Shown one piece after another: positions 7,790 to 39,260 of a stretch of DNA of 64,000 nt. The notes beneath the pieces were generated by a model. That model had not been told where the DNA came from and made no database searches. It saw only the letters and a program-made list of their open reading frames with translations. The DNA lies in contig QHSP01000019.1 in the NCBI GenBank assembly GCA_003220495.1, positions 44,148-108,147 of the forward strand. Direction: 5' to 3'. The first letter of the stretch is position 1. Each line of letters opens with the position of its first letter. This DNA is from Candidatus Rokuibacteriota bacterium (GTDB lineage: Bacteria; Methylomirabilota; Methylomirabilia; Rokubacteriales; CSP1-6). The translations under genes were made by a program, and so were the position numbers.

Positions 7790-7808
7790 CGCGCACCCCC
7801 CGGGGAGA

Positions 7809-8759
7809 CTATGCGGTTTGGATTGCCGACAGCCGCCAGGGCTTCGGGCCGACCGGGCGCGTGAAGGTCCAGTACTCCTGGATATCCACAGGCGTGGTCG
7901 CCCCCTCCACGACGGCGCCGGTCGAGTCGTCGACCGTGTAGTCGACGAGTGACACGACGAAGTACACCGTCACCCAATCTTGACCGCTCTCCTGCCAGGC
8001 CTCGGTCATCTCGGCCCGTCCGATCTGGACGCGCTCGATCCGGTTCGTGCGCCGAGCGCCGCGAAGCTGATCACACTGCGCCTGCAGGCGGCCGAACTCC
8101 TGCGGCGTGAGCCGATCTTGCACCGCGCTCAGATCACGCCTGACGATACCGGCCTGGACCTCGACGAAAGTCCCCTTCGCCCAATCGGCGAACCCGACCG
8201 GATCGAAGGTCGCGTCCATTCCGCGGATGTGTTCGAGCCCGCGATCGAGATCCGACTCGCCGGGCGGAGCCTCCATCACGGCGCCACCGCCGCCGGTCGA
8301 CCAGCCGCGCTCGGCAGAGCCGTATGCGCCGGCTCCGGCGTACGCGGGCTCGGGTCGCGCATCCGCACGACCGCGCAGCATCCTGAACACGAGGAAGATC
8401 GCCCCACCGATCAGCAAGAGCTCGAGGAGCCCCACGCCTCCACCGAAGCCGCCGCCCATGCCGCCGAACAGCATGGAGCCCAGAAGCCCGCCGAGCGCGA
8501 AGCCGGCGAGGCCGCCCATCAGGCCGCCGAAGATGCCCGGACGCGCCGACGGCTGTTGCATCGGCTGGGGCGAGGTTTGGGTGGGGCTCGTCGCTCTCGA
8601 GGGGCTCGACGGTGTCGTCGAGGGAGAGGCCGGCGACGAGTACGAGCGAGAGCCACGACTTCCGCCGCTCGTGGCGCGGGCCCACACCGACGCCGTGTCG
8701 AGCAGCAGCAGCGAGACCAGCGACAGCCCGAATATGAGCACAAAAGCTCTTGTTCGCAT
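7809..8759 (-). CDS. Tim44-like domain protein
   Basis: Signal peptide, Ser/Pro/Gly-rich linker, a Gly-rich hydrophobic segment, then a C-terminal Tim44-like domain (DRGLEHIRGMDATFDPVGF...EYWTFTR). Confidence 0.6.
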   Translation of the reverse strand: MRTRAFVLIFGLSLVSLLLLDTASVWARATSGGSRGSRSYSSPASPSTTPSSPSRATSPTQTSPQPMQQPSARPGIFGGLMGGLAGFALGGLLGSMLFGGMGGGFGGGVGLLELLLIGGAIFLVFRMLRGRADARPEPAYAGAGAYGSAERGWSTGGGGAVMEAPPGESDLDRGLEHIRGMDATFDPVGFADWAKGTFVEVQAGIVRRDLSAVQDRLTPQEFGRLQAQCDQLRGARRTNRIERVQIGRAEMTEAWQESGQDWVTVYFVVSLVDYTVDDSTGAVVEGATTPVDIQEYWTFTRPVGPKPWRLSAIQTA

Positions 8760-8808
8760 GTTCGCCTCCTACGTCATTCTAGCGCGGCCAGCCACCGGCC
8801 GCGGCCCG

Positions 8809-9777
8809 CTACGGAATGAGGAGCACCTTGCCCGTCGTCTTCCGTCCCTCCAGCGCCCGGTGCGCGTCGGCCGCGTCCTTCAGGGGGAACTCGAACTCGG
8901 TGCGGAGCTTGAGCTTGCCGTCGCGGATCCAACCCAGGAGCTCGTTCGAGCGCTCGAGCAGCTCCGCGCGCGTGGTGATGTGGTGGTTGAGGCTCGGGCG
9001 CGTCAGGAAGAGCGAGCCCTTGGCGTTGAGCGTCTGCGGATCGAAGGGCCCGATCGGGCCGCTCGACTGGCCGTAGAGCGCCATCATGCCGCGCGGCGCC
9101 AGGCAGTTGAACCCCTTGTCGAACGTGGTCTGACCGACCGAGTCGTAGACGACCTGCAGCCCCTTGCCGTCGGTGAGTCGCTTCACCTCGGCCTCGAAAT
9201 CCTGCTTCGTGTAGAGAATGACGTCCGAGGCGCCAGCTTCGCGCGCCAGCTTCGCTTTGTCCTCGGTGGAGACCGTGCCGATGACACGCGCTCCCCGCAT
9301 CTTCGCGATCTGGCACAGCAGCAACCCCACGCCGCCGGCCGCCGCGTGCACGAGGCACGTGTCGCCGCGCTTGAGCGGATAGGTCGAGCAGGCGAGATAG
9401 TGCGCGGTCAGCCCCTGCAGCATCGCCGCGGCGCCCTGGTGCGTGCTCAGTCCGGTCGGCAGGGTCACCAGACGCGCAGCCGGGACCACGGCGTACTGCG
9501 CGTAAGCGCCGGCAACACCCGTGTAAGCGACCTTGTCACCGACCTTCACCTCGCTCACGTTCGGACCGACCGCGGTGACCGTACCGCCGGCTTCCAGCCC
9601 GAGGGTCAGCGGCAGCGCGAGCTTGTATTGACCCGAGCGCTGGTACACGTCGATGTAGTTGATACCGGCGGCGTCCACCTTCACCGTGGCCTCGCCGGCC
9701 TTCGGGGTGGGATCCGCCACGTCTTCGTAGCGAAGGACTTCGGGACCGCCGGGCGCGTTGACTCGAATGGCTTTCAT
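8809..9777 (-). CDS. qor: NADPH:quinone reductase (zeta-crystallin family)
   Basis: [15 protein letters not shown]...[14 protein letters not shown]... Medium-chain dehydrogenase/reductase (MDR) fold; 322 aa. Confidence 0.85.
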
Positions 9778-9814
9778 GAAGACCCTCCCGGGAATTCAAC
9801 TCGATGCGGCGGGA

Positions 9815-10666
9815 TTATAGCACCGGGTTCGGCGGCCGTCGGTCGAGGAGCCCGCGCAGCCAGTGGTACATCGCATAGGCCTCGAGGGCGAACGGAGGGA
9901 AACCGAGATAACCGAGCACGGGCATTTCGAAAACCTTGATCCCGCCGAGATACGGGACCGCGTAGGTCCAGCGGGTCGCCGCCCAGTAGTTCCAGAGCTC
10001 CCACAGCACGCCACAGACCACACCGCTGGCCAGGAGTCCGAACAACCGCGACGCGTCTCCAGACGCCAGGTCGGCCAGCCACGACGGCCGGCCTCGCCGA
10101 TAGTTCAGGGGCTCGAGCATCAGGACCCAGCCGATCCAGACCAGCGGGACGAGCCAGGTCGAGACGACGACGAGCGGCACGACGACGCCGATCGCGCCGA
10201 TGGCGACGAGGAAGCGGAGGGCGGCCGGCGGCGGTCGCCAGGCCCGCACGCGAGCCCGACGGAAGATCGTCGCTCGCAGGGTGGCGGCCGTGAGGAACAT
10301 CGCCGGGAAGATCGTCGCGAAGGCCCAGTCGTAGCCGACTCGTCGCAGGAAGAGGTTCGGCTCGAGCCCGTGATAGCGCCACCAGAGGCCCTCGGCGTGG
10401 ACACCGCCTCGCCAGAAGCGCGGCGAGTTGTAGAGCTCGAAGAGCCACCAGCAGGCGATGGACGTGAGCGCCACCAGGAGGCCTTCGACGCGGTCCGTCG
10501 TGAGATACGAGCGGCCTGTGAAGCGCGCCGTCACGGCGTCGATGAAGAGGACGTAGCCGGTCCACACGATCGGCGTGAACCAGCGGGCCACCGTCGGCTC
10601 ACCCGAGAAGAGCAGCACCTCGGCGGCGCCGATGACGCCGAGCCCAGCCCATCCGTGGGCGCTCAA
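9815..10666 (-). CDS. Trp-rich integral membrane protein, function unknown
   Basis: Multiple hydrophobic helices and very high Trp content. Probable TTG start at 10664-10666 overlapping the upstream stop (TTGA); the longer ORF-track N-terminus would overlap the upstream gene by 120 nt. Confidence 0.45.
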   Translation of the reverse strand: MSAHGWAGLGVIGAAEVLLFSGEPTVARWFTPIVWTGYVLFIDAVTARFTGRSYLTTDRVEGLLVALTSIACWWLFELYNSPRFWRGGVHAEGLWWRYHGLEPNLFLRRVGYDWAFATIFPAMFLTAATLRATIFRRARVRAWRPPPAALRFLVAIGAIGVVVPLVVVSTWLVPLVWIGWVLMLEPLNYRRGRPSWLADLASGDASRLFGLLASGVVCGVLWELWNYWAATRWTYAVPYLGGIKVFEMPVLGYLGFPPFALEAYAMYHWLRGLLDRRPPNPVL

Positions 10667-11226
10667 CGCATCGACGCGAGGTCGATCGTGAAGCGGCTGA
10701 CGTCTCGGCCATCCGGGGCGCGAACGACCAGAATCACGCGAGACTTCGGCGCGATCTCCTTGACCGGAAACCCATAGACGCAACGCGCGAGGTAGCTGCC
10801 GTCCTCCGTTCGAACCGCGGTGCGTTCGTTCTGCACGAAGCTCGGCTCGATCTCGCGGTCGCCCAGGAGGATCCGCGGGACGAAGAATCGCGCAAAGTCC
10901 TCACGGGGCCCGCGGAGGTTCGCCCAAATCACCAGCCGGTCCTGCTGCTCGCGCAGGAGCTTCTCGGGCTCGCGGTCCTTCATGCGCTCGTTCTTGAACG
11001 CCGCGTTGCGGGCCGCCAGGACGAGCCGGTGGAAGGGCGTGATCACCGTGAGGCTGTCCCCCGTCGGGTTCGCCACGCGCCACTCCGTATCGAAGGAGTC
11101 GCGGGTGATCGACTGGGCGCCCACGCGCAGCGCGTCGCTCCGCTGCTGGGGCTCCAGGCTGAACGACACGGCGCCGGCCGCCGACGGTCCGGCCAGGAGC
11201 AGAACCAGCACCGCGCGCGCGATCAC
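10663..11226 (-). CDS. secreted hypothetical protein
   Basis: 187 aa with signal peptide MIARAVLVLLLAGPSAAGA. ATG overlaps the upstream M16 peptidase stop (ATGA). No recognisable domain. Confidence 0.5.
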   Translation of the reverse strand: MIARAVLVLLLAGPSAAGAVSFSLEPQQRSDALRVGAQSITRDSFDTEWRVANPTGDSLTVITPFHRLVLAARNAAFKNERMKDREPEKLLREQQDRLVIWANLRGPREDFARFFVPRILLGDREIEPSFVQNERTAVRTEDGSYLARCVYGFPVKEIAPKSRVILVVRAPDGRDVSRFTIDLASMR

Positions 11227-12578
11227 TTGGTCTCGCCGACGATGACGAGGCTGAAGGCGCCCGGCGGGAAGTACTTCACGGCCACCCGCTGGATGTCGGC
11301 GGCGGTGACCTTGCCGATCCGCTCCTTGTAGCGATCGGCATAGTCGAGGCCGAGTCCTCGGTCCTCGACGGCCACCAGGAAGTCGGCGACCTTGCCCGAC
11401 GTGTCGAGGCGGAGCGGAAAGCTCCCGATGAGGTACTGCTTGGCGAGCGCGAGCTCGCGATCGGCGACAGGCTCACGACCCATCCGTGCGAGCTCCTCGC
11501 GGATCATGGCGACAACCTTCGGCGCCTCGGCCGTCCGCGTCTGAGCGGAGACGGCGAAGGACGCGCCGTGGCGCCACGGCGCGACCCAGCTGAACACCGC
11601 ATACGCGAGGCCGGATTCCTCCCGGACTCGCGTGTACAGGCGGGAGGCCGAGCCTCCCCCGAGCACGTAGGACGCGACGGCCATCGGGAAGTAGTCGGGG
11701 TCCGTCTGCACGATCGCCTGACGACCGAACATGATCGTGGTCTGCGTCAGCTCGCGCTTGACCGTCTCCTCGCGCGCCGTCGCCGGCGAGGTCGCCGCCG
11801 CGACGGTCGCGGGCGGATCGGCGGGGCGCGCCCACGATCCGAACCGCGCCATGATCTCGCGGCGCGCCTCGTCGACCGTGATCGCGCCCACCACGGCGAT
11901 GATCGTGGTGTCGGGCCGCGCGCGCTCCCGGTAGAACTTGACGACGTCGTCGCGGGTGAGGCGCGCCACCGACTCGCGCGTCCCCTCGACCGGCCGGCCG
12001 TAGGGATGGCCGTCGAAGACGAGCCGTCCGAGGGCGCGAGCCGCGACGGTGCCCGGATCCTCCTCGGAGCGCTTGATGGCGGCCTGGATCTCCGACACCT
12101 TCCGGGCCACCTCGGCTTCAGGGAAGGTCGGCGTCAGGACGACCTCGGACACGAGGTCGAGCCCCAGCGCCAGATCCTTCTTCTGAGCCGTCATCGAGAC
12201 CGTGATCGTATCGCGACCGGTTCCGGCTTCGACGCTGCCCCCCACGAACTCGATGGCCGAATCGAGCTCGGGCCCGGTACGCTTCGCGGTCCCCCGCGTG
12301 AGCACCGCTCCCGTCAGGTTGGCCAACCCCGCGCGATCAGCCGGATCGTACACGGCCCCCGCCCGCGTCAGGACACGTACGGCCACGATCGGCACCGCCG
12401 GCCGCTCGGCCACCAGCACGACGATCCCGTTCGCCAGGACCTCCCGATGGGCGAGCGGCGCGGCCCCGGCGGGCCCGCGCGCCACGACGCTCGCCAGGGC
12501 CACGGCGCACGCCAGGGCCAGCGCGCTGCGCGCGCGGCCGCGTCGCGCGGCTCGGAGCTCGACCCGGGTGCGCATCAC
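11223..12578 (-). CDS. M16 family peptidase, non-catalytic subunit-like
   Basis: Pitrilysin-family fold with signal peptide but no HxxEH motif. Overlaps the stop of the upstream catalytic M16 gene; 451 aa. Confidence 0.8.
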   Translation of the reverse strand: MMRTRVELRAARRGRARSALALACAVALASVVARGPAGAAPLAHREVLANGIVVLVAERPAVPIVAVRVLTRAGAVYDPADRAGLANLTGAVLTRGTAKRTGPELDSAIEFVGGSVEAGTGRDTITVSMTAQKKDLALGLDLVSEVVLTPTFPEAEVARKVSEIQAAIKRSEEDPGTVAARALGRLVFDGHPYGRPVEGTRESVARLTRDDVVKFYRERARPDTTIIAVVGAITVDEARREIMARFGSWARPADPPATVAAATSPATAREETVKRELTQTTIMFGRQAIVQTDPDYFPMAVASYVLGGGSASRLYTRVREESGLAYAVFSWVAPWRHGASFAVSAQTRTAEAPKVVAMIREELARMGREPVADRELALAKQYLIGSFPLRLDTSGKVADFLVAVEDRGLGLDYADRYKERIGKVTAADIQRVAVKYFPPGAFSLVIVGETK

Positions 12579-22726: not shown

Positions 22727-24163
22727 TTATCGGGAGCTCCCCACGGTCGCGGCGCGCGACTTGCGCCGGGCGACGCCGGTCTTGATGGCCGCCTCCGAGA
22801 CGGCCGCCGCGACGGCCGGCACGACCCGGCTGTCGAACATCGAGGGCGTGATGTACTCCTCGCCCAGCTCTTCTTTGGTCACGATCTCCGCCAGCGCCTG
22901 CGCCGCGGCGAGCTTCATCTCGTCGTTCACGCGCCGGGCGCGCACATCGAGCATGCCGCGGAAGAACCCGGGGAAGCAGCAAGAGTTGTTGATTTGGTTC
23001 GGATAGTCCGAGCGACCAGTGGCCATCACCCGGACGTACGGGCCGGCCTCCTCGGGCAAGATCTCCGGGACCGGATTGGCCATCGCGAAGACGATCGGGT
23101 CGCGGCCCATGGCCTTGATGTCCTTCAGCGAGACCACGCCGGGCCCTGAGAGCCCGATGAACACGTCGGCGCCCTTGAGGGCATCCGCGGCGGTGCCCTT
23201 CAGACGCTTCTCGTTGGTGTGCTTGGCGAACCACTCCTTCATCGCGTTCATGTTGTCCGTGCGGCCGCGATAGAGCGCGCCCGCCCGGTCGCAGGCGATG
23301 ATGTGCTTGGCGCCGGCCTTCATGAGGAGCTTCGCCGTGGCGATCCCGGACGCGCCCGCCCCGATGAACACGATCCGCGCGTCCGAGAGCCGCTTCTTGA
23401 CGATCTTCAGCGCGTTGAGCATGGCGGCCAGAACGACCACGGCCGTTCCGTGCTGGTCGTCGTGGAAGACCGGGATCTCGAGATCCCGCTGCAGGCGCGT
23501 CTCGATGTCGAAGCAGCGCGGCGCGGAAATATCCTCGAGGTTGATGCCGCCGAAGATCGGGGAGATCGCCTTGACGATCGAGACGATCTCGTCGACGTCC
23601 TTGGTCGCCAGACAGATCGGGAACGCGTCCACGCCGGCGAATTCCTTGAAGATGAGCGCCTTGCCTTCCATCACCGGCGCCGCGCCGGCCGGGCCGATGT
23701 CGCCGAGCCCCAGCACGGCGGTCCCGTCGGTGACCACCGCGACGCAGTTCTGCTTGATCGTGAGCGCGTAGGCCTTCTGCGGATCGTGATGGATGGCCAT
23801 GCACACGCGGGCGACGCCCGGGGTGTACGCCATCGAGAGGTCGTCGCGCGTCTTCACCGACATCTTGCCCCTCACCTCGATCTTGCCGCCGAGGTGCATC
23901 AGGAAGGTCCGGTCGGAGACGTTCACGACCTTCACGGCGCGAACGCCGCGGATCTTGTCGACGATCTGCTGGCCGTGCGGCTCGTCTCGCGCCTTGAAGG
24001 TGAGGTCGCGGGTAATCGTCGTCTTGGCGACCTGGACCAGGTCGATCGCGCCGATATCGCCACCGGCCTTGCCGATGGCCGAGGTGACCTGCCCGAGCAT
24101 CCCGGGCTTGTTGGTGATCTCCAGCCGGACGGTGAGGCTGTAGCTCGCACTGGGCAACTGCAT
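22727..24163 (-). CDS. NAD(P)-dependent malic enzyme with N-terminal ACT-like domain
   Basis: 478-aa product from ATG at 24161-24163 (RBS GGGGAGGAT): [20 protein letters not shown] Rossmann, FANPVPEI. The upstream part of the 593-aa ORF is not coding. Confidence 0.9.
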
Positions 24164-24294
24164 GTGGATCCTCCCCTGATTGTGATCGGCGCTCGCCCCG
24201 GCCGGCGCAACCCGGCCCGGAACACTGCGGCGGCGGGCACTCCCCCGCTGGAGCGCGTGTATCTTACCTCTCTTGTGGACGATTTCGCGAGGAG

Positions 24295-24450
24295 GTGCGC
24301 GCCGCAGGCTGTCGCGGGGCTGGGGCCCCGTCAGCCGAGGCGCGCCTGCAAATCGAACCGTGCGCGCCGCAGGCTGTCGCGGGGCTGGGGCCCCATCAGC
24401 CGAGGCGCGCCTGCAAATCGAACCGTGCGCGCCGGGGCCCGCCGGCCGAG
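24295..24450. repeat. 65-bp tandem direct repeat, 2 full copies plus a degenerate partial third
   Basis: Unit GTGCGCGCCGCAGGCTGTCGCGGGGCTGGGGCCCCGTCAGCCGAGGCGCGCCTGCAAATCGAACC at 24295-24359 and 24360-24424 (1 mismatch), then GTGCGCGCCGGGGCCCGCCGGCCGAG. Sits in the divergent intergenic region between the malic enzyme and DUF169-MtaA genes. Confidence 0.9.
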
Positions 24451-24494
24451 ACGTGCCCGAAAAGTGTAGTACGCTGCATCGGGAGGCGGCGCTC

Positions 24495-26366
24495 ATGATC
24501 GACGTCAAGACGGCTGATCGGGAACTGCAGCTCTACATCCGCCCGCAGACGTTCCCCGTGGCGATCCGGATGCTGCGACCGGGCGAGGAAATCCCCGAGA
24601 AAGCCCGGCGGCCGGCGCGCGACTTCAAGAAGCTCAGCATGAACTGCCAGGTCATCGACATGGCCCGGCGCTACGGCTGGATGATCGCCCTCACGCGCGA
24701 GGACCACATCTGCTCGCTCGGCATCGCGGCGCTCGGCTTCGAGAAACCGACCCACCTGCACAGCTCCGGAACGCTCTGCGAGGGCATGTACACCGAGACG
24801 AAGTCGGCGGGCCAGCGCTCCGAGGCCGCGGTCGACAAATTCGCCCCGGGAGAGTATTCGACTCTGCTGGTGGCGCCGCTCGACCGCACCACGTTCGAGC
24901 CGCACCTGGTGTGCATCTACGCCAACCCCGCGCAGGTCATGCGCCTGACGCAGGCCGCGCTCTGGAAGCGGGGCGGCAAGCTGACGTCCTCGTTCGGGGG
25001 CCGCATCGATTGCTCCGAGATCATCGTGACGACGATGCGGACCGATCAGCCGCAGGTGATCCTGCCGTGCTCGGGCGACCGGATATTCGGCCAGACGCAG
25101 GACCACGAGATGGCCTTCACGATTCCGTGGACCCAGATGGAAGAGGTCATCGAGGGCCTCAAGGGCACTCACGACGGCGGGATCCGCTACCCGATCACGC
25201 AGTTCCTCGAGTACGAGGCCAAGCTGCCGCCCAAGTACATGGAGGCGAGCCGCATCTGGGAGGTCGAGCACGGCCGAGCGCAATTCACGAATCGTGAGCG
25301 GGTGGTCGCGGCCTACCGCCGGTCGTTCGCCGACCGCGTGCCGGTCTATCCGATCGTCGCCTCGTTCGCCGGCACCCTCGACGGCCTGTCGATCGAGGAG
25401 TACTGCACGAACGTCCCGAAGGCGATCACGGCGATGCTCAACTACTACGAGCGCTACCAGCCCGACGTGGTCCTGGCCTACAACGACCTCGCAAAGGAAG
25501 CCGAGGCCTTCGGCAGCCGGGTGAAGTACTCGGATTACGTGGTGCCGTCGATCGACCAGCACGTGCTGCAGGACGACAAGGCGAAGCTGGCGCGGCTCGC
25601 GATGCCCGATCCCTACAAGACGGCGCGGCTCCCGGGCTTCCTCGAGCAATGCGAGGCGCTCGTCCGCGCCAAGCCCCCGACGGCCATCGGCGCGGTCGCG
25701 GTCGGTCCGTGGACGATCGCGATGCTGCTGCGCAATCCCGAGACGATGCTGCTCGACACGTTCGAGGACCCGCAGTTCATCCACGACCTGATGCGAGTGG
25801 CGACCGACTTCTGCATGCTCTGGGGCGACGCCATCGCCAAGACGGGGATCGGCCTCTCGTTCTCCGAGCCCACCGCGTCGATCAGCCTGATCTCGCCCGA
25901 CAACTACCGGGAGTTCGTCGCGCCCTATCACAAGGAGCTGGTCGACCACTTCAAGGCCAAGAAGGTCGGCGTGACCACGCACATCTGCGGAACGACCTAT
26001 CCGATCTACGAGGACCTGATCCGCTGCGGCTTCACGACCGTCTCGTTCGACCTCGACCAGCAGGCCGATCCGACGCTCTACGTGGACCAGCTCACGCGCT
26101 TCATGGAGGTCTCGAAGGGCCGGGCCGTCGCGATCGGCAACGTCGACGCGACGAAGTTCGAGCGGTCGACCAAGGAGGCGATGGTCGCCGACGTGCGCCG
26201 CTGCCTCGACGCTGCGGCCAGGCACTCCGCCTTCATCCTGTCGACGTCGTGCGAGATCCCGCCGCGCTCCGACGCCGAGATCGTCAAGTGGTTCATGGAC
26301 GCCGCGCGCGAGTACGGACGCTACGAGCGGATCTTCGACGGGGCCGAGCCGGCGCCGACCTCGTGA
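24495..26366 (+). CDS. fusion protein: DUF169-like N-terminal domain + MtaA/CmuA-type (uroporphyrinogen-decarboxylase family) zinc-dependent corrinoid methyltransferase domain
   Basis: ATG at 24495 with GGGAGG RBS; 623 aa. The C-terminal ~350 aa has the UroD/MtaA fold with zinc-ligand motifs HICG and SCEIP. The N-terminal ~265 aa resembles DUF169/COG2043 from memory; this is not verified. Confidence 0.7.
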   Translation: MIDVKTADRELQLYIRPQTFPVAIRMLRPGEEIPEKARRPARDFKKLSMNCQVIDMARRYGWMIALTREDHICSLGIAALGFEKPTHLHSSGTLCEGMYTETKSAGQRSEAAVDKFAPGEYSTLLVAPLDRTTFEPHLVCIYANPAQVMRLTQAALWKRGGKLTSSFGGRIDCSEIIVTTMRTDQPQVILPCSGDRIFGQTQDHEMAFTIPWTQMEEVIEGLKGTHDGGIRYPITQFLEYEAKLPPKYMEASRIWEVEHGRAQFTNRERVVAAYRRSFADRVPVYPIVASFAGTLDGLSIEEYCTNVPKAITAMLNYYERYQPDVVLAYNDLAKEAEAFGSRVKYSDYVVPSIDQHVLQDDKAKLARLAMPDPYKTARLPGFLEQCEALVRAKPPTAIGAVAVGPWTIAMLLRNPETMLLDTFEDPQFIHDLMRVATDFCMLWGDAIAKTGIGLSFSEPTASISLISPDNYREFVAPYHKELVDHFKAKKVGVTTHICGTTYPIYEDLIRCGFTTVSFDLDQQADPTLYVDQLTRFMEVSKGRAVAIGNVDATKFERSTKEAMVADVRRCLDAAARHSAFILSTSCEIPPRSDAEIVKWFMDAAREYGRYERIFDGAEPAPTS

Positions 26367-26478: not shown

Positions 26479-26859
26479 CTACCACTTCACGGGCTTGGAC
26501 GGCCGATGCGCGTAGCCGCTGTCCCGCCCGCCACCGCCACCGGGTCCGCGCCCGCCGCCGCCCGGTCGGCCACCGCCGCCCGGCCGGCCGCCGCCGCCAC
26601 CCGTGCGGGCGGCCTGTGGATTCGAGATCTCCACCGTGATTCTCCGGCCATCGAGCTCACGCCCATTCAGCTGAGAAATCGAGGCCTGGGCCTCTTCCGC
26701 CGTGTTCATCTCGACGAACCCGAATCCCCGTGACTGCCCGGAGAAGCGATCGGTGATCACGGTTGCGGACAGGACGTTACCGCACTGTGTGAAGAACTCC
26801 CGGAGCCCTTCGCTGGTCGTGGAGTACGCAAGACCGCCTATGTAGAGTTTAGATGCCAT
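26479..26859 (-). CDS. RNA-binding protein (single RRM domain with Gly-rich tail)
   Basis: RNP-2 KLYIGGL and RNP-1 RGFGFVEM; C-terminal GGGGRPGGGGRPGGGG repeats. ATG at 26857-26859 with GAGGGGG RBS; about 170 nt 5' UTR. Confidence 0.85.
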   Translation of the reverse strand: MASKLYIGGLAYSTTSEGLREFFTQCGNVLSATVITDRFSGQSRGFGFVEMNTAEEAQASISQLNGRELDGRRITVEISNPQAARTGGGGGRPGGGGRPGGGGRGPGGGGGRDSGYAHRPSKPVKW

Positions 26860-27029
26860 CGGAACCCCCTCGGACTGTCTTCCGCTCTCTGGCACGCCCC
26901 GCGAACGCGGAAGCTCTCTTTCATCGGAGGCGAGGTCCACCCAAAGCGGCGGACGCATCAAGTGTACACAGGCTGAGGCAACGCGCAACTGGACGGCGCG
27001 GTTTGTCGCTCCGCGTCACCCGCCGACGG

Positions 27030-33029: not shown

Positions 33030-34347
33030 GGCCGAGTGGGCTAGACACCGGGGCCTGAGTGAACTCGAGAACCCGCTCGCACCAGGCGGCGACTCCGAGG
33101 AGGCGGCTCGACGCCCCGGCGGCCTGGACGAGTTGGATGGCGTGAGGGAGCCCCGAGGAGGCGACGCCGCTCGGCAGGCTGATCGCCGGCACGCCTGCAT
33201 TGCTCCACGGTGCGCAGAGCGACCCGTCGCCCGTCGAGCCGAGCCCGGATGGCGCCGGCGCGGGCGCCGTGGGACCGAGGAGCGCGTCGTGCGCGCTCAG
33301 CAGTGGCATCACGTCGTCGCGGAACGCGAGACGCAGCCGGTTGGCGCTGACGTACGCGGTCGCCGACACGCCGAGGCCGGCTTCGACGAGGCTCCGCATC
33401 TGGGGGCTGTACTCGTCGGCGTGCTTGAGGAACCTGGCCTCGTGGTAGGCCGCGGCCTCGGCTTCGAGCACCGTCAACCCCGCGGCCGGGAGGTCGCGAA
33501 ACAACGGCGGCAGCTCGATCTTCGACACCGTGGCACCGGCGCGCGCGAAGGCGTCGATGATCGCTTCGATATGCGCCGCGACCTCGCGCGAGGCCCGGAC
33601 GACGAGCTCGGGCGCGAGCGCCAGCCGTGGCGCGCTGACCGCCGACGGCTCGAGATCGAGTCCGGTCAGTACCGACATCGCCAGAGCGGCGTCGGCGACC
33701 GAACGCGTGAGGACGCCGACGTGATCGAGCGACCACGCGAGCGGGATGACGCCCTGCACCGGCACCAGGCCGTGCGTACCCTTGAATCCAACGACACCGC
33801 AGTAGGCGGCGGGCCGTAGCACGGAGCCGACGGTCTGCGAGCCGAGCGCCAGCGGCGCCATCCTGGCCGCGACGGCCGCCGCCGAGCCCGCCGACGAGCC
33901 TCCGGGCGTGTGGCCGGGGTTCCACGGATTTCGCGTCGGTGCCGGGTCGCGATAGGCGAACTCCGTCGTCACGGTCTTGCCGAGCACGATCGCGCCGGCC
34001 GCCCGGATCCGAGCCACCGCCGCGGCATCCGCGGTCGGCCGGGTGTGGGCGAAGGGCCTGGCTCCTCCGGTCGTCGGCATCCCGGCGACGTCGAAGATGT
34101 CCTTCACGCCGACGGGGACACCGTGGAGCGGGCCGCGAAGCCGTCCCGCGCGGGCCTCCGATTCGCGCTCGCGCGCGACCGCGCGCGCGCCGTCGGCGTC
34201 GACGTGGGCCCACGCCACGAGCTCGCCGTCGAGGGCGGCGATCCGCGCCAGACACGCATCGACCAGCTCGACCGGGCTCACGGCGCGCGCGCGAATCGCC
34301 TCCACCGCCTGCCGCACGCCGAGCGACGCGGGCTCAGCGGATCGCAT
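33022..34347 (-). CDS. amidase (amidase-signature family)
   Basis: GGSSAGSAAAVA signature and a Ser-cisSer-Lys context; 441 aa. Confidence 0.85.
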   Translation of the reverse strand: MRSAEPASLGVRQAVEAIRARAVSPVELVDACLARIAALDGELVAWAHVDADGARAVARERESEARAGRLRGPLHGVPVGVKDIFDVAGMPTTGGARPFAHTRPTADAAAVARIRAAGAIVLGKTVTTEFAYRDPAPTRNPWNPGHTPGGSSAGSAAAVAARMAPLALGSQTVGSVLRPAAYCGVVGFKGTHGLVPVQGVIPLAWSLDHVGVLTRSVADAALAMSVLTGLDLEPSAVSAPRLALAPELVVRASREVAAHIEAIIDAFARAGATVSKIELPPLFRDLPAAGLTVLEAEAAAYHEARFLKHADEYSPQMRSLVEAGLGVSATAYVSANRLRLAFRDDVMPLLSAHDALLGPTAPAPAPSGLGSTGDGSLCAPWSNAGVPAISLPSGVASSGLPHAIQLVQAAGASSRLLGVAAWCERVLEFTQAPVSSPLGRV

Positions 34348-36184
34348 CGAGCACCTCCGCGACGACCTCGAATCGGCCGAACGAGGGCATCAGGTACGCG
34401 CCGGCGTAGCGCGTCCTCACGCTGCGGACGAGCTCCTGGGCCATCTCGATCCCGACCCGGAGCGCGCTGTCGCCGGCTTCGCGAAGCCGGCGGCGCACGT
34501 TCTCGGGAATCGTGATCCCCGGGACCTCGTTGTGGAGGAACTCGGCGTGTCGGGCGCTGTGAAGCGGGAGGATGCCCACCAGGATCGGAACGGGCGAGCC
34601 GCCGGCTCGCTCCAGGAAGCGATCGAGCAGCGGCAGGTCGTACACGGGCTGCGTCTGGATCCACCGAGCCCCGGCTCGGACCTTTCGCTGAAAGCGATCG
34701 ATTTCTCGCGCGACGTCCTCGGCCACCGGGTTCAGGGCGGCGCCCACGTAGAACGACGTCGGCTCGCCGATGCTGCTCCCGGTCGCATCCTGCCCCTCGT
34801 TCATCCGGCGGAGGATCTCGATGAGCCCTACTCCGTCGACGTCGAAGACGGCGGTCGCGTTGGCATAGTCGCCCGCGCGGGGAGGATCGCCGGTCATCGC
34901 GAGGATGTTGCGCACGTCGAGCGCATGCGCGCCGAGCAAGTCGCCCTGAATACCCATCAGATTCCGGTCGCGACAGGTGAAGTGCATGTTGATATCGAGG
35001 CCCGTCGCCTCCCGCACCAGGAGCGCGGTCGGCAACACCGCCATCCGGACCCGTCCGAGCGAGCCGTCGTTGATGTCGACGATGTCGACGCCGCGCTCTC
35101 TCAAGAGCTTGGCGCCCTGGACGAGCTTCTCGACCGTGTGGCCGCGCGGCGGATCGAGCTCGACCGTGACGACGAACTCGCGAGCCGCGAGCTTGCGGCC
35201 GAGCAAAGTCGGGGGGCGGGCGACGTGGAGCCCGGGCGAAATATCCGCCGCCACCGGCCGGACCGTGACGGCCGCAGTACGCGCCTCGGCGCGGGCCGGG
35301 CGTCTGCGGTCGATGACTTCGCGCATCGCGGCGATGTGCTGGGGCGTCGTGCCGCAGCAGCCACCGACCAGGCGAGCACCGGCGCCGACCATGCGCTCGG
35401 CGTACTCCGCCATATAGGTGGGTGACGAGAGATAGATGAGGCGCTCGCCGATCCGGCTCGGCAGGCCGGCATTGGGCTGGATGCAGAGCGGCAAATTCCG
35501 GGCCTCCGGGCGCATCTGCTCCAGCACTTCATAGAGGGGGCTCGAGCCGACCGAGCAGTTTGCCCCGAGCGCCTGGACCGGCAGCGCGCACAGGGCTCGC
35601 GCGACCTCGGCGGCCGGACGCCCCGTGAAGGTGACGCCGTCGTCGGTGAACGCCATCTGGGCGATGATCGGCACGTCGGTGATCGCGCGGATCGCGGCCA
35701 CGGCGAGCGCGACCTCGTCCAGGTCGGAGAACGTCTCGACGATGAACGCGTCGACGCCACCCTCGAGCAGCGCCTCGGCCTGCTCCCGAAACGCCGCCCG
35801 CGCCTCGTCGAGAGTGACCGTTCCGAGCGGCGCCAGGTACTTCCCGAGGGGCCCGATGGAGCCGAGCACGAAGACGTCCCGGCCCGAGCTCTCGCGCACG
35901 TCGCGCGCGAGCGCGGCGCCGCGCCGATTGATCTCGCGCACCTGCTTCTCCAGGCCGTGCACCGCCAGCTTGAACCGATTCGCGCCGAAGGTGTTGGTCT
36001 CGATGCAATCGGCGCCGGCGGCGATGTAGTCGGCGTGGATCGACTGGACGACCCGGGGGGTGTTCAGGTTGAGGACGTCGAAGCACGCGTCGAGCGAGAC
36101 ACCGCGCGCGTAGAGCAAGGTGCCCATCGCGCCGTCGCACAAGAGCGGCCCGGCGGCGAGGCGGCGGCTAAGCTCGTACGGCAT
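34334..36184 (-). CDS. bifunctional homocysteine S-methyltransferase / 5,10-methylenetetrahydrofolate reductase (YitJ-like)
   Basis: N-terminal Hcy-binding domain (LCDGAMGT...GADCIETNTF...GGCCGTTP) fused to a C-terminal MetF/MTHFR domain; 616 aa. Confidence 0.85.
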   Translation of the reverse strand: MPYELSRRLAAGPLLCDGAMGTLLYARGVSLDACFDVLNLNTPRVVQSIHADYIAAGADCIETNTFGANRFKLAVHGLEKQVREINRRGAALARDVRESSGRDVFVLGSIGPLGKYLAPLGTVTLDEARAAFREQAEALLEGGVDAFIVETFSDLDEVALAVAAIRAITDVPIIAQMAFTDDGVTFTGRPAAEVARALCALPVQALGANCSVGSSPLYEVLEQMRPEARNLPLCIQPNAGLPSRIGERLIYLSSPTYMAEYAERMVGAGARLVGGCCGTTPQHIAAMREVIDRRRPARAEARTAAVTVRPVAADISPGLHVARPPTLLGRKLAAREFVVTVELDPPRGHTVEKLVQGAKLLRERGVDIVDINDGSLGRVRMAVLPTALLVREATGLDINMHFTCRDRNLMGIQGDLLGAHALDVRNILAMTGDPPRAGDYANATAVFDVDGVGLIEILRRMNEGQDATGSSIGEPTSFYVGAALNPVAEDVAREIDRFQRKVRAGARWIQTQPVYDLPLLDRFLERAGGSPVPILVGILPLHSARHAEFLHNEVPGITIPENVRRRLREAGDSALRVGIEMAQELVRSVRTRYAGAYLMPSFGRFEVVAEVLDAIR

Positions 36185-36692
36185 GCGCCTCCCGCAGCGC
36201 GCTCAGGATGCGCCCGACGACCTGGTCGGCACCGATCCCGGTCGTGTCGATGACGATGTGCGCCCGCCGGTAATACGGCTGGCGCGCCCGATAGAGCTCT
36301 TCGATCTCTGCCATCGAGCGGCCCTCGAGCATGGGGCGGTTACCGATCCGGCTGGCGCGCGCGTGCAGCTCGCGCACATCGCCGTCGAGCCACACCACGG
36401 TGCCGAGCTCGCGCAGGAGCTCCATGCGGCCGTCACGGCACGGCATGCCGCCGCCGGTCGCGATGACCTCGCCCGATTTCAGCCTGAGGCTCTCGATGGT
36501 GTCGGCCTCGAGCTGACGGAAGCGCGGCTCGCCAGCCTCACGGAAGATCTCGGGGATCGAGCGGCCTTCGCTGGCCACGATGATGTCGTCGGTCTCGACG
36601 AAACAGCGCCCGAGACGACGCGCGAGCAGGCGCCCGCAGACCGACTTTCCGGCGCCCATGAAGCCCACAAGAATTACGTTATCCCGCCGCAT
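36168..36692 (-). CDS. aroK: shikimate kinase
   Basis: Walker A GFMGAGKS at the N-terminus; 174 aa; AroK fold. Confidence 0.85.
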   Translation of the reverse strand: MRRDNVILVGFMGAGKSVCGRLLARRLGRCFVETDDIIVASEGRSIPEIFREAGEPRFRQLEADTIESLRLKSGEVIATGGGMPCRDGRMELLRELGTVVWLDGDVRELHARASRIGNRPMLEGRSMAEIEELYRARQPYYRRAHIVIDTTGIGADQVVGRILSALREAHAVRA

Positions 36693-36919
36693 CCACGCAT
36701 CGTATCAGATCATCCTCACTTCGGCGGTGAGGTGGGTTCGCGGTAGAGCGCGACGAACGGGGCCTGTCGCCGGGGGCGCACCCACGCGATCGGCTCCGTC
36801 GCACGCTCGCGCAAGCCACCTCGCCGCCCCGGGCGCATGTCGGCTACGTGAGGTCGCGGGGTGATTTTTGGGGGCTTAGGCGCGGAACGGATTCCGGTTG
36901 GGTCCGGTGCAATCTTCGG

Positions 36920-37645
36920 TTAGCGGTGGACGGTTTTGGAGGCGGGGGTTCGGCGGTAGGCGCAGTCGCGCATCCAGCAGCGGGCGCATTGGCTGAAGTA
37001 GTGGTCGATCTTCGCGTGTGCTCCGGCTGCGGCCAGGAGGGAGATCGACTTGACCGGGCTCATGAAGCAGGCCTCGTTGAGGCTGACGCCGATCGGGTCA
37101 CCGGGACAGATGGCGAAGAGCGCCTTCTGCTCGCTCACGTCCCAGTGGCCGTAGCCCGGGCTCACCCGGTTGGTGACCGGCAACCCGAGCGGAATCGCCT
37201 CCTGACAGAAGAGATCGTTGACGTACTCGGCCAGGCTCTCGACCGCTCCGGAGCCGACGCTGTCGAGCATGGCAGCGAGCGGCAGCTCGCGCGCCTCCCA
37301 CAACTCGGCGGCGCGCCGCTCCAGCCCATCGCCGATCGTGCACACGGCGGCCGCCAGCCACTCGATCGGCCCCCAGAGACGCCCGACGTCGGGAATCGTC
37401 AGCACGACATCGCCGGCCTCGATCGTGTCGGCGCCGAGGCGCCTGACGGCAAGCCAGCGGACGACGGCGCGCGGGACGATCAACGTGCGGCCGAGGGCGA
37501 GCGCCTCGTCGAAGAGCGCGAGGACCTCGGGGCCGGGCGTGTCGACCGACTTCTTGTAGCCCTGGAAACGCAGCACCTCGTCGGGGTCGATCGCGAGCGG
37601 GAGTGCCGTGAGAACCCGAGGCCTGGTCGAGAGTGGCGCGGTCAC
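36920..37645 (-). CDS. methionine-synthase activation (AdoMet-binding/reactivation) domain-like protein with C-terminal Cys cluster
   Basis: RVSPGYGHWDVSEQKALF...GVSLNEACFMSPVKSISLL...HYF resembles the MetH activation domain (Met_synt_B12). Extra C-terminal CARCWMRDC. GTG start at 37643-37645 shares one base with the upstream TAG stop. Confidence 0.55.
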   Translation of the reverse strand: MTAPLSTRPRVLTALPLAIDPDEVLRFQGYKKSVDTPGPEVLALFDEALALGRTLIVPRAVVRWLAVRRLGADTIEAGDVVLTIPDVGRLWGPIEWLAAAVCTIGDGLERRAAELWEARELPLAAMLDSVGSGAVESLAEYVNDLFCQEAIPLGLPVTNRVSPGYGHWDVSEQKALFAICPGDPIGVSLNEACFMSPVKSISLLAAAGAHAKIDHYFSQCARCWMRDCAYRRTPASKTVHR

Positions 37646-38592
37646 TACGGGTGCTTCTGACGCCCTCGAGCGCGCACGACCTCGGCGATGAGGCGGATGT
37701 GCTCCGGATCGGAGCCGCAGCAGGCGCCGACGATGTTGCACCCGGCGTCAAGCAGCGCCGGATAGTCGCGCGCCATCTCCGCGGGCCCGAGCTCGTACGT
37801 CACGGTCTCGCCCTTCCTGACGGGCAGCCCCGCGTTCGGATAGGCGACGAGCGGCGCGTCGGTCACGCGCCGCATCTCCCGGATGATCACGATGGCGCGA
37901 TCCGGCCCGCGGCCGCAGTTCATGCCGATCACGTCGGCGCCCGCCGCCAGGAGATTCTTCGCGACCTCCGCGGGACTCTCGCCCCACATGGTGCGGTCAC
38001 GATCGTGCAGGTCCTCGTACTGGAAGAACATCGTGGCCATCACCGGCAGGTCGGCCACCGCCTTGCACGCGCGGATCGCCGCCGCGGCCTCCTGCGGGAA
38101 CATCATGGTCTCCACCGCGAAGAGGTCCACGCCGCCCGCGACGAGGGCTTGGGCCTGCTCGGTGAACGTCTCGAGATATTCGTCGTCGGTGGCGATGTTG
38201 TCGCCGACGCCGTAGTCGGCGGGCACCGCGCTCGTGGGACCGATCGAGCCGGCGACGTAGCCCGTCGCGGGCGCCGCCGCGCGCGCCAGGCGCGCCCCCT
38301 GCTCGTTCAGCTCGCGGGCGCGCGCAGCCATGTTCTGGCCGTACCGCTCGTTGTACTCCTTGAGCTTGATGGCGGTCGCGCCGAACGTGTTCGTCTCGAC
38401 GATCTGGCTCCCTGCGTCGAAGTAGCCCTGGTGGATCCCGCGCACGATGTCGGCATGCGTCACGTTCCAGAGCTCGGGACAGTGGCCGTCGAGGAGTCCA
38501 GCCGCGAACAGCATGGTCCCGTAGCCGCCGTCGAACACGAGCGGCTCGCCCGCGCGCACCCGTTCGACGACCTCCCACCCCCGCGCCTTCAC
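37645..38592 (-). CDS. homocysteine S-methyltransferase domain protein (MetH Hcy-binding-domain-like, Zn-dependent)
   Basis: VFDGGYGTML...VETNTF...GMNCG...GACCGS: Pfam S-methyl_trans-type TIM barrel with Cys zinc ligands; 315 aa; GTG start. Confidence 0.8.
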   Translation of the reverse strand: MKARGWEVVERVRAGEPLVFDGGYGTMLFAAGLLDGHCPELWNVTHADIVRGIHQGYFDAGSQIVETNTFGATAIKLKEYNERYGQNMAARARELNEQGARLARAAAPATGYVAGSIGPTSAVPADYGVGDNIATDDEYLETFTEQAQALVAGGVDLFAVETMMFPQEAAAAIRACKAVADLPVMATMFFQYEDLHDRDRTMWGESPAEVAKNLLAAGADVIGMNCGRGPDRAIVIIREMRRVTDAPLVAYPNAGLPVRKGETVTYELGPAEMARDYPALLDAGCNIVGACCGSDPEHIRLIAEVVRARGRQKHP

Positions 38593-39260
38593 GACGCGAC
38601 CTTCGCCATCGCCGCGACGAGCGCCTTGGCCTTGACGACGGCCAGGGTCGAGTCCTTGGCATAGCCGTCGGCGCCGATCTCGTCGGCGAAGGCCTGGCTC
38701 ACCGGCGCGCCGCCGACCATGACCCTCACGCGCTCGCGGAGCCCGGCCTTGATCAGCGCGTCGATCGTGCGCTTCATCGCGGGCATGGTCGTGGTCATCA
38801 GCGCCGAGATGCCGACGAGGTTGGCGCCGTGCTCGCCGACAGCCGCCACGAACGCTTCGGGCGCCACGTCGCGGCCGAGGTTCACGACCTTGAACCCGGC
38901 GCCCTCGAGCATCATCGCGACGAGGTTCTTGCCGATGTCGTGCAGGTCGCCCTGCGCGGTGCCGATCACGACGATACCGAGGTAGTCCGCGCCGTGGGCG
39001 GAGGCCGTGATGAGGGGCTTCAACAGGTCGAGGCCCGCGTACATGGCGCGCGCGGAGAGGAGGACCTGCGGCACGTAGTACTCGTTGCGGCGGAACTTCT
39101 CGCCGACGACGTCCATGCCGGGGATGAGTCCCTTGAAGATGAGCGCCTTCGGATCGAGCGAGAGGTCGAGCCCCTCGCGCGTTTTCCGGGCCACCGTGTC
39201 CTTGTCGCCCACGATCAGCGCGCGTGCCATCGTCGGGTAGTCGAACGTTTCGTCGCCCAT
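38589..39260 (-). CDS. cobalamin-binding (corrinoid) protein, B12-binding-2 cap + B12-binding Rossmann domain
   Basis: DxHxxG cobalamin-ligand motif GDLHDIGKNLV and downstream SALMTTT...MVGGAP; 223 aa; MetH-B12-domain / MtaC-like. Confidence 0.85.
   Translation of the reverse strand: MGDETFDYPTMARALIVGDKDTVARKTREGLDLSLDPKALIFKGLIPGMDVVGEKFRRNEYYVPQVLLSARAMYAGLDLLKPLITASAHGADYLGIVVIGTAQGDLHDIGKNLVAMMLEGAGFKVVNLGRDVAPEAFVAAVGEHGANLVGISALMTTTMPAMKRTIDALIKAGLRERVRVMVGGAPVSQAFADEIGADGYAKDSTLAVVKAKALVAAMAKVAS

Follow-up and report, generated by a model that had tools for sequence, protein, structure and literature searches.

A fused DUF169–UroD-like protein of Rokubacteria corresponds to a conserved gene pair in other lineages

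What does a domain of no published function do when it is joined in one polypeptide to an enzyme domain of understood chemistry? This question is raised by a 64,000-nucleotide (nt) stretch of contig QHSP01000019.1 from a Candidatus Rokuibacteriota bacterium (the window), which at positions 24495–26366 of its forward strand encodes a protein with an N-terminal DUF169 (COG2043) half and a C-terminal half resembling uroporphyrinogen decarboxylase (UroD). DUF169/COG2043 is an old, widespread family of bacteria and archaea, and Rokubacteria are an abundant, mostly uncultured soil phylum. In full-text literature we found no published function and no solved structure for DUF169, and a literature search returned no paper mentioning the DUF169–UroD architecture. 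In the papers that name it, DUF169 appears only incidentally, as a neighbouring or co-occurring gene of HgcA, TauE, SepRS and YedE; an apparent mention of 'DUF169' in the CysDuF paper is actually DUF1691. The architecture is already visible in databases, where JGI annotates such proteins as 'MtaA/CmuA family methyltransferase'. The fusion provides a 'Rosetta stone' link between DUF169 and an enzyme class with understood chemistry. New here is that the two halves are separate, abutting or overlapping genes in other phyla, and DUF169 becomes experimentally approachable because dozens of adjacent-gene cases from other lineages support the link made by the fusion.

A single conserved fusion gene in Rokubacteria

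The open frame spans positions 24273–26366 (+). Its longest version begins at a TTG at 24273, and an ATG at 24495 gives a product of 623 amino acids (aa). We take this ATG as the likely start because a Shine-Dalgarno-like GGGAGG, seen directly in the sequence, precedes it and more than 100 homologues of 614–625 aa align with the window protein from residue 1. Base composition is of the coding type (G+C at third codon positions, GC3, 0.91), and the only noteworthy matches in a Pfam scan of the 623-aa protein are two full-length domains. The gene and its main parts are as follows.

24481–24486, + strand: Shine-Dalgarno-like GGGAGG, 8 nt 5′ of the ATG
24495–26366, + strand: DUF169–UroD-like fusion gene, a single open frame of 623 aa plus stop
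24525–25157, + strand: DUF169 (PF02596) domain, residues 11–221; conserved subfamily core to about residue 258
25197–25334, + strand: inter-domain linker, residues ~235–280
25287–26315, + strand: URO-D-fold (PF01208) MtaA-like domain, residues 265–607

A preliminary description of this DNA, made from its letters alone, had read the gene as one polypeptide and had named an overlooked frameshift or stop as a finding that would overturn this reading. The 623-aa frame is uninterrupted. A GTDB scan with one genome per species found a relative in 305 genomes, and all locus counts for Rokubacteria below refer to the best 80 of these. These 80 carry full-length fusions of 80–97% identity, matching residues 1 to ~614–623 unbroken, and nearly all are labelled Rokubacteria or Methylomirabilota. 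Each of the best 120 protein clusters shows 86–97% identity to the window protein and carries both Pfam domains, and those with a named source come from Rokubacteria metagenome-assembled genomes. More divergent fusions occur at 63–65% identity (L161, L172 and P0121) and at 51% identity (L136). Two genes joined by a frameshift or assembly error are ruled out by the same architecture in 80 loci and more than 100 protein clusters. That the gene is an artefact of sequencing or assembly, or a pseudogene, is vanishingly improbable: the loci were assembled independently, the composition is that of coding DNA, the protein is highly conserved, and we found no point in favour of such a reading. The fusion is real and, judged from its sequence conservation, under selection.

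Across the Rokubacteria loci the median identity to the window copy is 86% for the fusion, 84% for a neighbouring acetyl-CoA synthetase and 83% for a malic enzyme, compared with only 59–70% for the neighbouring regulators. The fusion protein is among the most conserved genes of its neighbourhood across Rokubacteria, which suggests a core and not an accessory role. Apparent second copies 3′ of the fusion in three loci (L062, L064 and L073) are not paralogues; we rejected them because they are short upstream open reading frames (ORFs) that cluster with the non-coding N-terminal extension of the ORF call.

The two halves are adjacent genes in other lineages

Beyond the fusion clusters, the closest relatives of the window protein in an exhaustive HMMER search of 1.84 billion representatives are stand-alone DUF169 or stand-alone UroD-like proteins. 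Examples are a 265-aa DUF169 protein 54% identical to window residues 1–258 (P0133) and a 343-aa UroD-like protein 44% identical to residues 263–613 (P0141). In one locus (L081) the P0133 gene, at 53% identity to the window N-terminal half, shares a 4-nt overlap with a gene for a 343-aa UroD-like protein that is 44% identical to the window C-terminal half. In a second locus (L091) the same DUF169-then-UroD pair is divergent from genes for a histidine kinase and a sigma-54 regulator, and in a Deltaproteobacteria genome (L096) it is followed by an MtrH-type methyltransferase. The DUF169 gene of L096 (~9407–10000) is partly masked by a run of N, read as X, so that the 151 aa given in the source annotation understate its length.

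To survey this pairing more widely, we scanned JGI metagenomes with an alignment of the UroD-like clade and obtained 80 loci, of which 70 have a visible upstream region. These were classified with home-made hidden Markov models (HMMs), clustering and Pfam checks of cluster representatives.

Fusion: 8 of 70 loci
DUF169 immediately upstream, usually abutting: 27 of 70 loci
More divergent DUF169 immediately downstream: 4 of 70 loci
DUF169 within two genes: 2 of 70 loci
No DUF169: 29 of 70 loci

DUF169 is fused to, adjacent to or within two genes of the UroD-like gene in 41 of the 70 loci (59%). In 13 of the 29 DUF169-less loci an HpaB/AbfD-like gene (4-hydroxybutyryl-CoA dehydratase family) stands immediately upstream instead. 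We rejected a division of the UroD-like proteins into separate DUF169-linked and AbfD-linked clades, as they form one cluster at 55% identity or above. The two halves are shown by these loci to be a conserved pair: Rokubacteria have them fused, and Desulfobacterota-type and other lineages encode them, in unchanged order, as two genes that abut or overlap. Gene fusion together with gene neighbourhood is strong evidence that DUF169 and the UroD-like enzyme act together, and the suggestion of the preliminary description that the fusion is informative about DUF169 is borne out by the adjacency of both halves elsewhere.

A related arrangement without DUF169 occurs in Dehalococcoidia (L093–L095, 8443–9909), where a UroD-like gene 74% identical to the L081 partner is preceded by an HMGL-like gene and two conserved genes (~213 and ~220 aa) without a Pfam match, and followed by an enoyl-CoA hydratase.

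The C-terminal half carries a predicted thiolate zinc site

The C-terminal half matches the whole PF01208 profile (positions 1–346 of 346; E 2e-57, 195 bits against a cut-off of 23.9) and has the UroD-type (beta/alpha)8 fold, which places it in the URO-D superfamily. An AlphaFold2 model of the full-length protein has a mean predicted local distance difference test (pLDDT) score of 90.6, with both domains at ~95, and a predicted template modelling score (pTM) of 0.57. The linker has pLDDT values of 46–76 and coincides with the stop/start junction of the split pairs; the model does not fix the mutual orientation of the domains, because the linker is of low confidence and the pTM is 0.57. Compared with MtaA and UroD structures by Foldseek, the modelled C-terminal domain gives template modelling (TM) scores of 0.76–0.85. 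MtaA of Methanosarcina mazei (4AY7) is the top match in the PDB (E 4e-22, TM 0.84), followed by true UroDs and then MetE, ApcE and BHMT, and 4AY7 is also the only solved relative detectable by sequence (E 3e-15).

Alignment with 4AY7 places THICG (from residue 495) and SCEIP (from residue 585) over its HICG and GCGIAP motifs, and predicts the following ligands.

25980–25988, + strand: His496-x-Cys498 in THICG, predicted zinc ligands, aligned to HICG of 4AY7
26250–26252, + strand: Cys586 in SCEIP, predicted third zinc ligand, aligned to GCGIAP of 4AY7

The zinc motifs that the preliminary description had picked out are present, and by sequence alignment the His-x-Cys plus distal Cys that characterizes MtaA/CmuA enzymes is kept. 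His496, Cys498 and Cys586, as well as Cys570 and Glu458, are invariant in 82 subfamily sequences. In the UroD superfamily a His-Cys-Cys zinc sphere marks S- and Se-methyltransferases, and O-demethylases carry carboxylates in place of the zinc-sphere cysteines (Kountz & Balskus, PMC10418091). By this analogy the His-Cys-Cys sphere of the window protein supports methyl transfer at a soft (S or Se) atom.

Family assignment is less direct. As had been proposed, the C-terminal half is not a true UroD: it scores 39.4 bits with the HemE model TIGR01464 against a cut-off of 302.95, and its closest relatives are MtaA-type zinc methyltransferases. The narrower label of an MtaA/CmuA-type enzyme does not hold by score. 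MtaA/CmuA-type models rank first in an NCBIfam scan and all fall below their cut-offs (TIGR01463, 121 against 235 bits; NF004889, 118 against 244; NF040654 MtaA, 96 against 400; NF041608 MtbA, 85 against 600), which leaves the domain outside the curated family. Its own clade is a separate and widespread one, whose members bear no annotation beyond 'uroporphyrinogen decarboxylase family protein' and occur in Dehalococcoidia, Tectomicrobia, Clostridia, Thermodesulfobacteriota and Desulfobacterales.

DUF169 has four conserved cysteines

The N-terminal half, which the preliminary description had likened to DUF169, is verified as such by Pfam: it matches positions 2–209 of the 209-position PF02596 profile (E 3e-56, 191 bits against a cut-off of 27). 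It is 45–58% identical to stand-alone DUF169 proteins of Thermodesulfobacteriota, Chloroflexota, Bacillota and Eremiobacterota. An alignment of 66 subfamily sequences, 65 of them stand-alone proteins from several phyla, has a mean column identity of 53% and shares the motifs CQ..RR.GW, ED..C, GMYT, QVILPCxGDRIF, DxEMAF and GTHxGGxRYPI. Four cysteines are invariant in this alignment and in a second alignment, of 81 sequences.

24645–24647, + strand: Cys51, conserved family-wide; 100% in the 81 and 66 subfamily sequences and kept in divergent DUF169 proteins
24711–24713, + strand: Cys73, conserved family-wide
25011–25013, + strand: Cys173, invariant in all DUF169 proteins compared
25068–25070, + strand: Cys192, in the motif QVILPCxGDR, invariant in the subfamily

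Divergent DUF169 proteins retain Cys51, Cys73 and Cys173, and three of them have Gly or Ser at the position of Cys192. The AlphaFold2 model of the DUF169 domain is confident (pLDDT 93, pTM 0.86) and places all four cysteines at or next to helix N-termini. From this conservation pattern one may reasonably propose a metal or Fe-S site with cysteine ligands. No homologue was found in the PDB by phmmer (best E 0.21, spurious), Foldseek retrieved no solved structural relative below E 0.3, and neither sequence nor fold is like that of Rossmann-type B12-binding domains. An internal duplication was considered and rejected (hhalign probability 0.03%).

Neighbourhoods favour acyl-CoA genes over corrinoid genes

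Throughout the Rokubacteria loci the fusion gene is a monocistronic unit with no operon partner. In the window it stands alone on the + strand; its divergent upstream neighbours encode an ACT-malic enzyme, the acetyl-CoA synthetase and a major facilitator superfamily transporter, and its convergent downstream neighbours an RRM RNA-binding protein, an NtrC-type response regulator and a GAF/PAS histidine kinase, an arrangement conserved across Rokubacteria loci. The preliminary description implied a classical system of a methyltransferase 1 (MT1), a corrinoid protein and a methyltransferase 2 (MT2), which the context does not support: none of the 80 Rokubacteria loci has a corrinoid protein, an activase or a pterin/MtrH methyltransferase within 10 kb. 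The genomic hallmark of MtaA/CmuA enzymes, an adjacent corrinoid protein and/or Ram/RACo activase, is likewise missing from the fusion loci.

The split pairs give a similar picture. We counted neighbours of 25 DUF169-then-UroD pairs on a called gene set; 19 of the pairs lie in loci of five genes or more. Upstream of DUF169 stands the gene for the electron-transfer flavoprotein (ETF) alpha subunit in seven loci, for a TetR regulator in four and for CoA-transferase subunit B in three; in the seven ETF-alpha loci, ETF-beta, an acyl-CoA dehydrogenase and TetR precede ETF-alpha. Acyl-CoA genes are near 12 of the 19 split pairs and corrinoid-system genes near 2 of the 19.

Other DUF169 genes point in related directions. 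A 574-aa protein (P0161; L084, 1020–2744) holds DUF169 between two MaoC hot-dog domains, and its gene has a further MaoC gene and one for an ADP-forming acyl-CoA synthetase on its flanks; this second, independent DUF169 fusion points to acyl-CoA chemistry. In Thermodesulfobacteriota (L088–L090, ~7300–11430) a DUF169 gene of the same subfamily ends an operon of methylmalonyl-CoA mutase, B12-binding subunit, MeaB and epimerase genes and overlaps a downstream gene with an AF_1314_C domain. On an unrelated contig of 63% GC (L083, 462–2350) DUF169 directly precedes a methylmalonyl-CoA mutase, recognized by eye from its motifs. A distant member (22.5% identity) precedes a long-chain-fatty-acid-CoA ligase on plasmid pMTS3 of Cupriavidus sp. 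P-10 (L177, 8908–11389); this pair is an apparent two-gene operon divergent from an XRE regulator, with an acetate-CoA ligase family gene and an enoyl-CoA hydratase nearby. The commonest theme in DUF169 contexts is acyl-CoA metabolism; sulfur and cobalamin are recurrent but secondary.

By contrast, corrinoid-system genes do accompany members of the UroD-like clade that lack DUF169. AbfD-linked members often adjoin MtrH, a second UroD paralogue, a B12 corrinoid protein, RACo and CobO, and at least part of the clade therefore lies within bona fide corrinoid methyl-transfer systems. A recurrent marine-sediment cluster (L101, L104, L106, L113, L114, L126 and L129) runs from an AbfD-like gene to a UroD-like gene and on to MtrH, a second UroD paralogue, a B12 corrinoid protein and RACo, with CobO in two loci; it resembles a corrinoid methyltransferase system that has not been described before and is tied to acyl-CoA chemistry. 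Four further loci (L103, L105, L107 and L108) have the reversed order of AMP-ligase, pterin-binding methyltransferase, corrinoid protein, UroD-like gene and a divergent DUF169 that is 35% identical to the window N-terminal half, followed by an AbfD-like gene on the opposite strand. In this DUF169-downstream variant a Pterin_bind gene flanks the pair in all four loci and a B12 corrinoid protein in three.

Within the window, Pfam and an HMM scan of all ORFs detect a single corrinoid protein, at 38589–39260 (−), and to the sensitivity of that scan the earlier statement that it is the only one holds. It lies in a 'split MetH'-like cluster (34334–39260, −) that also contains a 315-aa homocysteine S-methyltransferase (37645–38592), an ORF weakly like the MetH activation domain (36920–37741), a shikimate kinase and a YitJ-like fusion of homocysteine methyltransferase and methylenetetrahydrofolate reductase (34334–36184). 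The HMMs used picked up neither a pterin-binding nor an MtrH methyl-donor domain in the 64 kb, and a methyl source for this corrinoid protein is for that reason not evident. No cobalamin riboswitch or other Rfam family was found in the window at gathering thresholds. A link between the fusion and this corrinoid protein 12 kb away is possible, and rests on shared synteny within one phylum.

Two features beside the fusion gene deserve mention. The RRM-type RNA-binding protein convergent with it (26479–26862, −; 127 aa) has a Gly/Arg-rich C-terminal tail and is syntenic in many Rokubacteria loci. Between the malic-enzyme and fusion genes lies a 65-bp tandem duplication (24295–24434; 2.2 copies, 98% identical) that ends 60 nt before the fusion ATG. 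This is its sole occurrence in the window, and the regions upstream of orthologues do not conserve it: blastn gave only partial matches of 18–32 nt in 5 of the 80 loci. A search for sigma-54 promoters, motivated by the conserved NtrC-type neighbours, gave no match at 24150–24494, and matches across the window were below chance.

Proposed function and alternatives

We tentatively favour the view that the fusion is a two-domain sulfur (thiol or thioether) methyl-transfer enzyme of organic-acid/acyl-CoA metabolism in which DUF169 serves as a cysteine–metal partner. The C-terminal domain would be a zinc (His496/Cys498/Cys586) alkyl-transferase of the MtaA lineage that moves a methyl group to or from the sulfur, or possibly selenium, of a small thiol or thioether. 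Its methyl partner would most likely be a methyl-corrinoid supplied in trans, as free cobalamin or on a corrinoid protein encoded elsewhere. Our confidence is moderate that this domain is a methyltransferase of the zinc-thiolate type that acts on sulfur and, most likely, uses methyl-corrinoid in trans. With low confidence, DUF169 would be a domain whose cysteines ligate a metal (Fe-S or Zn) and which binds or processes an organic co-substrate, probably a sulfur-bearing carboxylic acid or CoA thioester, and passes it to the methyltransferase domain. The setting would be organic-acid/acyl-CoA, probably organosulfur, catabolism and not methanogen-style C1 energy metabolism.

Several observations weigh against this proposal. 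The function of both subfamilies is read from sequence comparison and not from biochemistry, metal binding by the DUF169 cysteines is putative, and the corrinoid dependence is extrapolated because the C-terminal domain falls below the trusted cut-offs of every curated methyltransferase model. Corrinoid genes are missing within 10 kb of the Rokubacteria fusions and rare beside the split pairs. Conserved synteny in Rokubacteria may reflect relatedness only, and many of the metagenome loci probably come from related marine-sediment lineages, their counts not being independent events. Stand-alone DUF169 genes also lie beside metal-uptake genes in Bacillus tianshenii and in an aminotransferase/NUDIX setting, with no acyl-CoA link in either case.

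A classical corrinoid system working in trans would make the fusion an MT1/MT2-type methylcobamide methyltransferase that uses a separate corrinoid protein, such as that at 38589–39260, with DUF169 as a corrinoid-handling or reductive-activation accessory. The MtaA-like fold and zinc triad fit such a system, as do the company of the window corrinoid protein (homocysteine S-methyltransferase genes and an activation-like domain, with no Pterin_bind or MtrH in 64 kb), the DUF169 genes adjoining B12-dependent methylmalonyl-CoA mutase and MeaB, the MtrH gene of L096 and the Pterin_bind and corrinoid-protein neighbours of the DUF169-downstream variant; a published figure legend also presents DUF169 as a neighbour of HgcA in Nitrospina (10.1101/648329). 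However, the window corrinoid protein lies 12 kb off on the other strand in a different operon, the window contains no cobalamin riboswitch, and only 2 of 19 split pairs have a corrinoid-system gene nearby. Acyl-CoA metabolism explains the mutase neighbourhoods equally well, and the MaoC fusion and the CoA-ligase neighbourhood have no corrinoid link. On balance we regard this arrangement as somewhat doubtful. A further variant has DUF169 itself as a non-canonical cofactor carrier that replaces the B12-binding corrinoid protein, making the fusion analogous to CmuA. It draws on L096, where DUF169 would fill the corrinoid-protein slot of an otherwise typical MT1/corrinoid protein/MT2 cluster because the order is DUF169, UroD-like gene and MtrH with no B12-binding gene in 21 kb, and on the rarity of corrinoid proteins beside DUF169-upstream pairs (1 of 25). 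MtrH and a second UroD paralogue are each found in none of those 25 loci, compared with 5 and 7 of the 29 DUF169-less loci. This variant is decidedly improbable, as DUF169 is unlike Rossmann-type B12-binding domains in sequence and fold, four loci hold both DUF169 and a corrinoid protein, the anti-correlation (1 of 25 versus 3 of 29 loci) is not statistically convincing and the argument depends largely on the single L096 locus.

It is also conceivable, though unlikely, that no corrinoid is involved, and that the UroD-like domain uses a zinc-thiolate as do MetE, BHMT and epoxyalkane:coenzyme M (CoM) transferase to make or break a C–S bond on an acyl-CoA-type substrate, with DUF169 as a catalytic partner of the lyase/hydratase kind that carries Fe-S or zinc; the metabolism of mercapto- or methylthio-propionyl-CoA would be one example. 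The dominance of acyl-CoA dehydrogenase, ETF, CoA-transferase, CoA-ligase and AbfD-like neighbours suits this idea, as do the insertion of DUF169 in a MaoC enoyl-CoA hydratase, the pattern of three universal cysteines and one variable, which recalls catalytic Fe-S or zinc sites, and the retrieval of MetE and BHMT by the fold search. Against it, all characterized close structural relatives of the C-terminal domain that have the zinc triad use methyl-corrinoid, part of the same clade lies within complete corrinoid methyltransferase clusters, and a resemblance to thiolase is below usual significance. The more general notion that DUF169 is an unrecognized cysteine-ligated cofactor domain, either replacing the corrinoid protein or activase or performing C–S chemistry on acyl-CoA thioesters, is speculative and similarly unlikely. 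If true, the DUF169–UroD-like module would represent a new and widespread organosulfur (methylthio- or mercapto-acid) route in soil Rokubacteria and sediment Desulfobacterota.

Comparison with known methyltransferase systems

Set beside MtaA and MtbA, the methylcobamide:CoM methyltransferases that serve as MT2 proteins in Methanosarcina, the window C-terminal domain shares the UroD (beta/alpha)8 fold, and its H-x-C...C triad aligns residue for residue with that of 4AY7. It is only ~23% identical in sequence and below the TIGR01463 cut-off. The window gene is bacterial and monocistronic, has no corrinoid protein or MT1 nearby and encodes an N-terminal DUF169 domain that MtaA lacks. MtsA and MtpA, which are thioether:corrinoid and methylcorrinoid:CoM methyltransferases, and the Mlp proteins of type 1 mlp clusters are also UroD-superfamily members with a His-Cys-Cys zinc sphere; they act on methyl-sulfur or methyl-selenium compounds and are widespread in non-methanogens (PMC10418091). 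The window family differs from them by its pairing with DUF169 and acyl-CoA genes.

In CmuA, the chloromethane methyltransferase, a UroD-family methyltransferase domain is likewise fused to a working partner. The CmuA partner is a B12-binding Rossmann domain, whereas that of the window protein is DUF169, placed first in the chain; Pfam finds no B12-binding domain (PF02310 or PF02607) in the window protein at E values up to 1, which separates it from CmuA-type fusions. Among DUF169/COG2043 proteins the window N-terminal half is a full-length, high-scoring member that differs from its stand-alone relatives in being fused to an enzyme domain. MetE, BHMT and epoxyalkane:CoM transferase belong to the same structural superfamily and represent the corrinoid-free version of zinc-thiolate alkyl transfer. 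They are much more distant than MtaA, with other ligand spacing and domain organization, and Foldseek retrieves MetE at ~1e-9 and BHMT at ~1e-3.

For the study of corrinoid methyltransferases, a His-Cys-Cys UroD clade that pairs with DUF169 and acyl-CoA genes and not with a corrinoid protein and activase is unexpected. Although it fails the curated thresholds, the window protein appears, by sequence and motif, most like the MtaA, MtsA or Mlp-type zinc methyltransferases.

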